Shown piece by piece: positions 12,486 through 15,192 of a DNA stretch of 64,000 nt. Source of the DNA: an uncultured archaeon. Lineage in GTDB: Archaea; Asgardarchaeota; Thorarchaeia; Thorarchaeales; Thorarchaeaceae. Made by a program: the position numbers and the translations under genes. Numbering within the stretch: the stretch's first letter is position 1; each line of letters begins with the position of its first letter. Below the pieces are notes generated by a model, which was not told the origin of the DNA, ran no database searches, and saw only the letters and a program-made list of their open reading frames with translations. Location: NCBI GenBank assembly GCA_964610875.1, contig CAZSWP010000016.1, positions 1 through 64,000 of the forward strand, written 5' to 3'.

Positions 12486-13751
12486 TCAGTCAAGATTCAG
12501 GTCTTCAAAGGTAACAATCTGCATTTTTGAAGGACGATTATCAAGGTCTGCAACGGCAGCACTGATTATCAGACCAGTACTCTTTTTCATGGCAAGGTCC
12601 ACCAATCTCTGAGTGACGACACCATCAAAGACGACCGTCGTGACATCATCCTGTACTTCAAGAGTCTTCGCCAATTCTGCTACACCACACTCAACAATAA
12701 CTTGTTTCTCTCTATTATAGAGGACTGCTTTAAATGACTCTTTCATCTCTTTTGCTTTTTCTACAAACTCTGGATCAACAGCTACAGTCTTCTTACGAGT
12801 TCTTGTTTTACGTGGTATTGAAGGCGGTTCTCTCTCATCTTTTCGTTTGTCTTTTCTCTCTGGTCCTGTCTTTCGTCCAGATTCCTTTCTCTTGGTTTCA
12901 CCCCTTTGCTTGCTTACCAGGGCAAGTGCCTGATCAGCTGGGATGCGTGTTTGAAGAGCCTTTGTAATCTCTCTACGAGTAAGTTCTTCAACCTCTTTTC
13001 CCTCTAATGCTCTTGCAATGAAATCCACTTTTGCAACTTGCATCAACTCACGTAGTATCAAATCACCACCACGGTCACCATCAAGAAATGCAATAATGGT
13101 CTTCCCTCTTTTTCTTGTCAATTCTGATATTGACTTGGGAACATGAGTACCTTCTACTGCAATCGCATTATTAATCCCGTTTTTCATCAAATTCAAGACA
13201 TCTGCACGGCCCTCAACAATAATTATTTCCTTACTGCTTGATACTTCTGGACCCGCAGGGAGTTTATCTGGGCCATATTTCACAATGGATTTTCTCTTTC
13301 CTTTTGAAACAGCAGATGTGATCTCTTCTGTACCGGGTGAGATATCTTCCTCCCATCCTTTCAGAATTGAGATTGCTCGACTAACAACTCTTCTTCGTTT
13401 TGCACCCCTGATATCTTCCAGTTTCTGTAGTTTGACCTTTGCTACACAAGGGCCAACTCGGTCAACTGTTTCAAGCGAAGCTGCGAGAATTGCGGTAGCT
13501 GTCTTGTTCAGTGATACAGGAATCACAATCTCTCCCTTACTATTACCACCCTTTGATTTGATGGCAATCTGAATTCTTCCTATTCTTCCTGTTTTTTGGA
13601 GCTCTCTTAAGTCTAGGTCTTCACCTAGTAACCCTTCGGTCTGACCGAATAGTGCTCCAACTACGTCTGGTTTGTCTACGACCCCTTCGATCTCAATCTT
13701 TGCACGAATGACGTATTTTGCCGTGCTGGAGTCGAATTCACCTGTTCCTAT
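12486..13751 (-). CDS. dnaG: Archaeal DnaG (TOPRIM, exosome-associated); probable ATA start
   Basis: IIVEGRADV and DGDRGG; conserved N-terminus (KYVIRA...GVVDKPDVVGALFGQTEGLLG) lies upstream of the ORF-track start at 13526. Confidence 0.93.
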   Translation of the reverse strand: MGTGEFDSSTAKYVIRAKIEIEGVVDKPDVVGALFGQTEGLLGEDLDLRELQKTGRIGRIQIAIKSKGGNSKGEIVIPVSLNKTATAILAASLETVDRVGPCVAKVKLQKLEDIRGAKRRRVVSRAISILKGWEEDISPGTEEITSAVSKGKRKSIVKYGPDKLPAGPEVSSSKEIIIVEGRADVLNLMKNGINNAIAVEGTHVPKSISELTRKRGKTIIAFLDGDRGGDLILRELMQVAKVDFIARALEGKEVEELTRREITKALQTRIPADQALALVSKQRGETKRKESGRKTGPERKDKRKDEREPPSIPRKTRTRKKTVAVDPEFVEKAKEMKESFKAVLYNREKQVIVECGVAELAKTLEVQDDVTTVVFDGVVTQRLVDLAMKKSTGLIISAAVADLDNRPSKMQIVTFEDLNLD

Positions 13752-14216
13752 GTCTATACACGTCTCCTATGATAGCTGCACGGCTCAGAACCCAAGTCTT
13801 TGGGCAAACTGTTTGCACTTTTCGCTCCAAGACCTGAAACTAATCTTCTAATTCAGGTCACACTGTTAACACAGTGAACTTAATCCCATTATTACCCTAC
13901 ATATGCAAGCTGTGAATGTGATGAAGTTGTGAATGATGATTATCCTGTGAAATGCGTGGCGGTTCTAACGAAAGCACGAATTTTGCTTGGGTGAGAGCTC
14001 CGGCAGCGCTATATGATGTAATGATATTAATCATGAATGGACGGTACAATCTTATGCACAGTCCTAATTCACGTGTCAGTTGTCGATGATGCCTTTTGAA
14101 GATGTCGTTATCACCATATATTATGCTCTCAGATATTTGTGAATCGATTCATAATCGCGCTATTTGACAATCCTAATAACGGAAATCTTCCATACTGGTA
14201 TTGTTCAGGAGAGAGC

Positions 14217-14484
14217 GTCCCATTCACGAGGGCACACTGAGAGTAATCTATGACGTGTTGCGCATTGGGTGGGCCACAGCCTGAGCATATGCCTGTCAGC
14301 AATTCAAAACGAGCCTTAACGGACGTGCATGATGGGGATGTTCCATCCTGCAGATGATTTGCATGTCACCCCGGTTTCGTACATGACAGGTCGGTCGATG
14401 CCAGATTACCCGATGCGAGACAGTTCAGCTGAGCCGGATGTTCATCTGATGCTATGATGCTGAGAGTTAGTGTGAAGGGATACA
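14217..14484 (+). ncRNA. Three-hairpin box H/ACA pseudouridylation guide RNA
   Basis: Three hairpins, each with lower stem, pocket, K-turn and 3' ACA (14276, 14381, 14482); pockets complementary to conserved rRNA; T-tract at 14507-14510. Confidence 0.82.
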
Positions 14485-14514
14485 GGTATCGGCCACTGTT
14501 CCTCTCTTTTGTCA

Positions 14515-15192
14515 TTAGAGTTCAAACTCTCTTGTTTCACCTGGTCTGATCACTTCGACTTTGACCTTAATTCCCATATCTGCTATTTTCTGCCAGAATT
14601 TCTTGGGGTCCGTTTCAATAACTGGAAATGTATCATAGTGCATTGGAACTACATATTTGGGTCGGATAAGCTTGGTTGCCATTGCTGCTTCATCAATACC
14701 CATTGTGAAATACGAGCCCACGGGCGCAAAAAACAGGTCCGGTTTGTAGAGTTCTCCAAACAGTTCCATACTTGCGTGCAGTCCGGTGTCACCAGGGTGA
14801 TAGAATGAAGAGCCATTTGAGAACTTCACAATGAAACCGGTGGGAGTCCCACGTGAACTTGAGTGATGTGATTGAACCATAGTGATTCTCACATCATTTT
14901 CTGTGACACTACCACCAATATTCAATGTGTGTACATTCTCTACTCCATCTTCTCTTGCTTGCAAGCCAAGCTCATTTACTGCAACAAAATAAGCTCCGGT
15001 CTTTTTGCAGATTTGAATCGCTTCATCATATCCATGGTCTCCATGGTCATGAGTCACTAGGCAGAAATCTACCTCTTCTACATCTTCCACCTTGATAGGT
15101 GATGTTGGACCCGATAGCCATGGGTCTACAAAGATGACCTTCTCATCTGCTTCTATCTTAAATGCTGAATGTCCAAGATACGTTACTTTCAT
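14515..15192 (-). CDS. UPF0173 metal-dependent hydrolase (beta-lactamase fold)
   Basis: LGHSAF, THDHGDH, YHPGDTG, PMHYDTF. Confidence 0.92.
   Translation of the reverse strand: MKVTYLGHSAFKIEADEKVIFVDPWLSGPTSPIKVEDVEEVDFCLVTHDHGDHGYDEAIQICKKTGAYFVAVNELGLQAREDGVENVHTLNIGGSVTENDVRITMVQSHHSSSRGTPTGFIVKFSNGSSFYHPGDTGLHASMELFGELYKPDLFFAPVGSYFTMGIDEAAMATKLIRPKYVVPMHYDTFPVIETDPKKFWQKIADMGIKVKVEVIRPGETREFEL

Follow-up and report, generated by a model that had tools for sequence, protein, structure and literature searches.

Locus and Transcript

The window, meaning the whole stretch of 64,000 nucleotides that was analysed (positions 1 to 64,000 of contig CAZSWP010000016.1, assembly GCA_964610875.1), carries a Toprim/DnaG gene (12486-13526, minus strand) and a gene of the metallo-beta-lactamase fold (14515-15192, minus strand), and the gap between them holds an RNA gene of about 300 nt on the plus strand (14202-14494), which bears no annotation and comprises three H/ACA hairpins. 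The genome had been taken for that of a probable Asgard archaeon from its letters alone, and the neighbouring dnaG loci in GenBank are indeed titled Candidatus Thorarchaeota. A TATA-like promoter element (CCUAAUAA, 14172-14179, plus strand) precedes the first paired base by ~24 nt, and since a CTAATAA(C) box is kept at the same spacing upstream of the first outer helix (S1) in nearly all host-family homologues, we infer a promoter role for it. Downstream, a pyrimidine/T-rich tract (14498-14511, plus strand) probably acts as the terminator, a role suggested by a similar T/C-rich tract 3′ of the last outer helix (S3) in most homologues. Together the conserved upstream box and the T/C-rich tail bound the transcript and give its length of ~300 nt.

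Several features surround the RNA gene. A ~26-nt element (UUUGAAGAUGUCGUUAUCACC...) at 14095-14120, which precedes the sRNA by ~85-110 nt, recurs in some 25 out of 47 related loci and could be a promoter or operator for either dnaG or the sRNA; the remainder of the spacer between these two genes shows no conservation in the related loci. Conservation of DNA in the dnaG frame extends to ~13780 (window 13527-13780) in 37-39 related loci, past the first ATG/GTG/TTG start at 13526, which is consistent with a non-standard start codon of dnaG. The sole 5S rRNA candidate of the genome is found just past the window (G000:C16:65988-66137, minus strand), scoring 37.1 bits where the Rfam cut-off is 38.

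The three-hairpin RNA is probably expressed, as suggested by a metatranscriptome contig from two marine-sediment runs of one study, which is ~96% identical to 14210-14433, with zero cover of the flanks, and which ends before 14434-14494; these data consist of contigs only, and the source of the contig is a ~96%-identical relative. The contig differs from the RNA of the window at nine positions in all, five of which are listed. Three of these five fall in apical loops or the variable part of a guide, and two keep or improve pairs (14310 C>U yields U-G; 14400 G>A replaces G.U by A-U). Adapter sequence abuts the contig end at 14210, the first base after the 5′ strand of S1.

Three Tandem H/ACA Hairpins and Their Covariation

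The initial annotation recognized an archaeal three-hairpin H/ACA layout here, and each of the elements it listed was found again in place. All features below are on the plus strand. Hairpin H1 (14219-14273) is built of a lower stem CCCAUUCA/UGGGUGGG (14219-26/14266-73), a pocket with 5′ guide CGAGG (14227-31) and 3′ guide GCAU (14262-65), an upper stem (14232-37/14255-61) and a K-turn with UGA (14238-40) opposite UAU-GA-C (14249-54), capped by GUAA; its ACA box (14276-14278) lies 14 nt from the upper stem and is invariant in 17/17 homologues. Hairpin H2 (14309-14380) has its lower stem at 14309-15/14373-80, a pocket with 5′ guide UUAACGG (14316-22) and 3′ guide CACCCC (14367-72), an upper stem (14323-29/14360-66) and a K-turn with UGA (14330-32) opposite GAU-GA-UU (14353-59), followed at the same distance of 14 nt by ACA box 2 (14381-14383), which reads AUA in one homologue. 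In hairpin H3 (14409-14479) the lower stem (14409-11/14477-79 plus 14413-16/14470-73) is broken by a 1x3 internal loop, the pocket consists of 5′ guide GAGACAG (14417-23) and 3′ guide AGUUA (14465-69), and above the upper stem (14424-29/14459-64) lies a K-turn with UGA (14430-32) opposite UAU-GA-U (14453-58). ACA box 3 (14482-14484), within an ACAG that is invariant in the host family, was correctly placed by the initial annotation; its spacing is 17 nt by our count, not 18.

Compared with the usual 14-16 nt, H3 thus stands at 17 in the window and in most relatives, and at 15 nt in the relative G013, whose lower stem is uninterrupted. The haloarchaeal sR-h45 system tolerates 17 nt (PMC7075261). 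The three K-turns match the consensus, with UGA 3′ of the upper stem and a 3-nt bulge, G-A and one base opposite, so as to form G.A, A.G and a third non-Watson-Crick pair in all three hairpins. Counted from the foot of the upper stem, the distal G.A pair is at 9, 10 and 9 bases in H1, H2 and H3, and the motif is kept in homologues; according to the archaeal H/ACA rule the K-turn lies 9-10 layers above the pocket (PMC7075261).

A lower stem in the expected range of ~7-9 bp, an internal-loop pocket and an upper stem are present in all three hairpins, and every stem covaries. Across 17 aligned full-length homologues, the 83 proposed pairs have 90.1% of their cells paired, versus 34-43% for slid partners, and 46 of the 83 pairs have changed on both sides; none of 500 shuffles reaches any of the observed measures. 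Conservation of the ACA boxes and K-turns across homologues, along with covariation of the helices, is what the initial annotation had expected of a genuine guide, and both are seen. The minimum free energy fold of the single sequence was no better than shuffles (z = -0.28), and folding of either strand gave the same outcome, so structural support rests on the comparison across genomes.

A search of Rfam, which the initial annotation had also proposed, gave no family match at the gathering score, nor any when the limit was relaxed to E = 10, the HgcG family (RF00064) included. We read this miss as divergence across phyla and GC content. When the three modules were searched for paralogues in their own genome, only self-hits were returned.

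By blastn the RNA was found in 21 of 24 host-family genomes and in 0 of 16 outside the host family, and a covariance model of H3+S3 matched exactly once, at full length, in each of 62 genomes among 151 sampled across the Asgard phylum, in many families. Models of H2+S2 and H1+S1 match directly upstream of H3 in the ~18 distant Asgard genomes checked, which indicates that the tandem H1-H2-H3 build is phylum-wide. H1 is missing in four host-family genomes (L012, L013, L017, L022), where unrelated sequence takes its place; in L012 this is a long plain hairpin that S1 still encloses. In all 24 Thorarchaeota MAG loci with enough flank, the RNA lies upstream of dnaG and divergent from it. In the closed 3.6-Mb Asgard genome G081 (G081:C1:1838818-1840345; L145, L159) the RNA lies near the 3′ end of the 23S gene, not by dnaG, at a distance estimated at a few hundred nt, and it is possible that it is co-transcribed with the rRNA there.

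The synteny with dnaG kept throughout Thorarchaeota might point to a cis-acting leader or regulatory structure of dnaG or of the metallo-beta-lactamase-fold gene. We regard this as hardly credible, because both neighbours run on the other strand, the RNA comes with a promoter-like box and a T-rich end of its own, the copy of G081 sits just downstream of a 23S gene instead, and guide pockets and ACA boxes would be of no relevance to a leader.

Outer Helices Enclosing Each Module

An outer helix of its own, which covaries and is absent from the initial annotation, encloses each hairpin along with its ACA box. S1 pairs UGUUCAGG (14202-14209) with CCUGAGCA (14280-14287), with five of eight pairs compensatory and 90% of cells paired. 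S2 pairs CCUGUCA (14292-14298) with UGACAGG (14384-14390), the latter directly 3′ of ACA box 2; 94% of its cells are paired and two pairs are compensatory in the host family. S3 pairs GGUCGAUGCC (14393-14402) with GGUAUCGGCC (14485-14494), which directly follows ACA box 3, and seven of its ten pairs are compensatory in the host family. In distant Asgard genomes the sequence of S2 is wholly different with its pairing retained, and all ten pairs of S3 are compensatory among 18 such genomes, in an alignment that was fitted to the model. As the 3′ strand of the outer helix begins 0-1 nt after the ACA, the box sits in an asymmetric internal loop.

In most non-Thor Asgard genomes S1 takes the form 5′ GC-GAU-GA-N-GG ... 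CC-N-GA-GC 3′ (L142, L146, L147, L149, L153, L155-L157), which is a box C/D-like K-turn and for that reason probably one more L7Ae site, whereas the helix at this place is plain in Thorarchaeota and in family f19. Such a K-turn around hairpin 1 could serve both as an additional L7Ae site and as a clamp that keeps the ACA in its internal loop, confers independence on the module, or defines processing and end protection. For the outer helices in general, we infer that they insulate the three similar modules from one another as they fold, and shield the ends of the RNA. Whether a closing helix per module amounts to a required, hitherto undescribed layer of H/ACA RNA architecture is a more tentative idea, which we hold possible but rather doubtful. 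If it is true, H/ACA RNPs of Asgard and some other archaea would assemble unlike the Pyrococcus paradigm. The closing helices, with the C/D-like K-turn around hairpin 1 of other Asgard lineages, are the one aspect from which something new on H/ACA RNP assembly might be learnt.

The same exact bracketing of each hairpin and its ACA by a covarying helix would also be expected if the locus encoded a polycistronic precursor, with S1-S3 as processing stems that are cut to free three single-hairpin H/ACA sRNAs, and the adapter-bearing contig end at 14210, just past the 5′ strand of S1, suggests a defined RNA end. We nevertheless consider this unlikely. The contig runs unbroken through 14210-14433 across the 3′ strand of S1, S2, H2 and the 5′ strand of S3, inspection of the sequence showed no bulge-helix-bulge geometry in S1-S3, and the comparable archaeal guides Pf7/Pab40 and sR-h45 work as multi-hairpin RNAs (PMC2377435, PMC7075261).

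Predicted Targets in 23S rRNA

The MAG of the window contains no 16S rRNA gene and, of 23S, just the final ~310 nt, so targets were read from the rRNA of relatives in the host family (15 23S and 14 16S genes) and are given in E. coli numbering. Matches to these genes span 2932-3871 nt for 23S and up to 2411 nt for 16S, and some of the 16S matches are split into pieces, suggesting that several family members carry introns or insertions in these genes. Bipartite complementarity to the relatives' rRNA was found for all three pockets, canonical for H1 and with four to five target bases left unpaired for H2 and H3.

Under the strict canonical rule (the 3′ guide, then U-N, then the 5′ guide), H1 has a single match, CUUGC-UU-CCUCG in 23S, which is present in 8/8 relatives that have both H1 and 23S. 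Judged by the sequence of E. coli 23S and its modified bases, CCUCGAUG corresponds to 2498-2505, and the predicted target of H1 is then position 2496. The initial annotation had likewise aimed H1 at ~U2496, in the string UGC-UA-CCUCG, and the canonical pairing around U2496 in relatives' 23S agrees with that site, with the base N corrected from A to U. The H1 of the window itself, with its 3′ guide GCAU, gives just 3+5 base pairs; eight is the stated minimum for guide-target pairing (PMC7075261).

The same strict search with H2 and H3 returned no conserved match in the 15 23S and 14 16S genes of relatives. For H2, a 16S target at ~U1085 had been put forward and has to be abandoned, as the host-family 16S reads GAGGUAUCAGCUUAAGUGCUG there and is unable to pair. 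All 12 host-family 16S genes (L039-L052, ~position 1060) read GCAACGAAUGAGA where the archaeal norm is GCAACGAGCGAGA, and AACGAGCG is found nowhere in these 12 genes. No tRNA target of H2 was found among the 17 tRNAs that aragorn detected in its own genome. A perfect canonical target, GGGTGTNCCGTT, occurs 39 times in 47 host-family genomes versus ~45 times for the reversed control, all matches being at unrelated, mostly coding places, and was rejected. Two other 23S sites (~1808; ~2820, after the sarcin-ricin loop) were likewise dropped for want of covariation with the guide.

When a larger unpaired loop is permitted, H2 fits 23S GGGU/UUAGA/CCGUU around U2586, between helices 90 and 93, where ACCC of the 3′ guide pairs with G2581-U2584 and AACGG of the 5′ guide with C2590-U2594; the pairing is non-canonical in that ~4 target bases are left unpaired. 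Among the 600-1100 uridines ranked in each of 11 relatives, the site at U2585/2586 came first in eight and second in three. Guide and target also change together, the guide AACGG accompanying CCGUU in 23S and GACGG accompanying CCGUC. The relative G004 is the only one in the host family with CCGUC in its 23S and the only one with the guide GACGG, and the combination of CCGUC and GACGG recurs in non-Thor Asgard genomes. The 3′ guide of the latter reads AACCCAG, and its two A's pair with U2584 and U2585; U2585 apposes a C in the Thorarchaeota guide and an A in other Asgard lineages. With the C.U apposition counted, U2586 is 14 nt from the ACA, while U2585 would be 13, and for this reason U2586 is the favoured predicted target, with U2585 as a possible, less favoured alternative.

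For H3, helix 69 had been named as the target by the initial annotation, and the region holds, but the H69 sequence UAACUCUGACUGUCU on which it had staked the assignment is lacking in the relatives; H69 of the host family reads GGGAC-UAACUAUGA-GUCUC. The 3′ guide GUUAG pairs with CUAAC (1910-14) and the 5′ guide GAGAC with GUCUC (1920-24), in a non-canonical manner that leaves the loop UAUG(A), four to five target bases, unpaired. An earlier register of ours, with an invariant CA on U1917-G1918, was dropped when other Asgard guides proved to have GA(A/G) there. H69 is the top-ranked site of H3 in six of ten relatives, and here too guide and target change together: GAGAC accompanies GUCUC in the host family, and GAGAG accompanies CUCUC in other Asgard archaea, where the genomes G081 and G025 have CUCUC in H69 and the H3 guides of non-Thor Asgard, these two included, read GAGAG. 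In genus g10 (L012, L022) the H3 guides are altered to GAGGCAG and GUUUG, and the pairing with H69 is weaker. From these pairings we predict U1915 in the helix 69 loop as the target of H3, and probably U1917 too. One hairpin is known to serve both positions in Haloferax volcanii, where SL2 of sR-h45 was shown experimentally to make Ψ1915 and Ψ1917, and where an unpaired UVUN and the ACA box were shown to be required for sequential formation of Ψ1940 and Ψ1942 (E. coli 1915 and 1917) (PMC7075261).

The non-canonical pairing of H2 and H3, with four to five target bases unpaired in each, and the ACA distance of 17 nt in H3 could also be taken to mean that these two hairpins are non-catalytic, chaperone-like binders of 23S rRNA. 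Against this, hairpins of such geometry are catalytically competent in H. volcanii, with its unpaired UVUN and an ACA distance of up to 17 (PMC7075261), the predicted sites are known haloarchaeal pseudouridines (PMC2584109), and the ACA boxes and K-turns are strictly conserved. We find such a role very improbable, and regard H2 and H3 as probable catalytic guide modules.

Proposed Function

The protein machinery is encoded in the genome, as had been proposed for checking: Nop10, Gar1, two proteins of the L7Ae family and Cbf5, the last scoring 442 bits with the equivalog model. In the mechanism that we propose, L7Ae would bind the K-turn of each hairpin, and Cbf5-Nop10-Gar1 would bind both lower stem and ACA box, the ACA adjoining its helix being the putative Cbf5 site. 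The two strands of each pocket would then pair with 23S rRNA on both sides of a uridine, which Cbf5 would isomerise to pseudouridine, while the outer helix would close each module of hairpin plus ACA. H1 would act on U2496 with a canonical unpaired UN, H2 on U2586 in the strand that joins helices 90 and 93, and H3 on U1915 and probably U1917 in the loop of helix 69 with UAUG(A) unpaired. To judge from the complementarities, the most likely role of the RNA is to guide pseudouridine formation at three core sites in the large rRNA. Because of its architecture and targets, the Rfam model being unmatched, it is very probably the Thorarchaeota ortholog of the pan-archaeal three-motif guide known as Pf7, Pab40, Pho40 or Afu4 (HgcG), with predicted targets U2496, U2586 and U1915/U1917.

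The RNA is thus known in kind, and the outer covarying helix of each module is its one undescribed feature. As a gene, it is new to Asgard genomes, being unannotated and invisible to Rfam, and our literature search, in which one query may miss the slash in "H/ACA", yielded no description of H/ACA RNAs in Asgard archaea. The predicted sites correspond to the most conserved pseudouridines of the large subunit and so provide testable Ψ predictions for Asgard ribosomes.

Comparison with Known Guide RNAs

The initial annotation also held that such a guide in an Asgard genome bears on the origin of eukaryotic snoRNAs, a bearing that appears weak to us, as every feature of the RNA is archaeal and Pf7/Afu4 of Euryarchaeota are its orthologs. 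Yeast snR191 and human U19 are cited as guiding the two conserved pseudouridines of H69 (PMC5029457). These RNAs follow a hairpin-hinge-hairpin-tail plan that includes H and ACA boxes, lack K-turns and use a separate hairpin for each H69 site, whereas the Asgard RNA combines K-turns with one ACA for each hairpin and shows neither an H-box hinge nor any eukaryotic trait. Since it is wholly archaeal in design, no eukaryote-like intermediate is shown by it.

Closest to it is the Pf7/Pab40/Pho40/Afu4 RNA (HgcG, RF00064) of Thermococcales and Archaeoglobus, which likewise has three adjacent motifs with K-turns and ANA boxes. According to Muller et al. (PMC2377435), its motif 1 targets P. abyssi 23S position 2588, the "true" target of motif 2 of Afu4 and Pf7 corresponds to P. 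abyssi 2678, and motif 3 targets P. abyssi 2016 in stem-loop 69. An offset of +92 between P. abyssi and E. coli numbering, derived from the statement of the same paper that Pab35 makes the RluE, RluB and RluC sites, turns these positions into E. coli 2496, 2586 and H69, so that the target set and its order equal those of H1-H2-H3 in the Asgard RNA. The Asgard RNA differs in having no detectable similarity to the Rfam model, and in the outer closing helices of its modules, a comparison made for Pab40 by its published transcript start: in P. abyssi RNA-seq the 5′ end of Pab40 is the first base of motif 1 (PMC4652768), from which it follows that at least S1 is absent there.

A shortened relative is found in haloarchaea, where HP1 and HP2 correspond to stems II and III of Pf7 and stem I is absent (Grosjean et al., PMC2584109). 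In sR-h45 of H. volcanii, SL1 guides Ψ2605, which is E. coli 2586 between H90 and H93, and SL2, its UVUN being unpaired, guides Ψ1940 and Ψ1942, which are E. coli 1915 and 1917 (PMC7075261, PMC2584109); the target order of its hairpins is the same as in H2-H3. SL1 also places two A's on U2584 and U2585 (PMC7075261), as do the H2 guides of non-Thor Asgard, but its pairing is described as a typical UN, where Asgard H2 leaves ~4 bases unpaired. Unlike the Asgard RNA, sR-h45 lacks motif 1 and has a 56-nt spacer and an H box between its hairpins, and its two-hairpin form resembles that of the host-family loci without H1 (L012, L013, L017, L022). One three-module guide, directed at H69 and two sites of the peptidyl-transferase centre, therefore appears to be common to Asgard archaea, Thermococcales, Archaeoglobus and haloarchaea.
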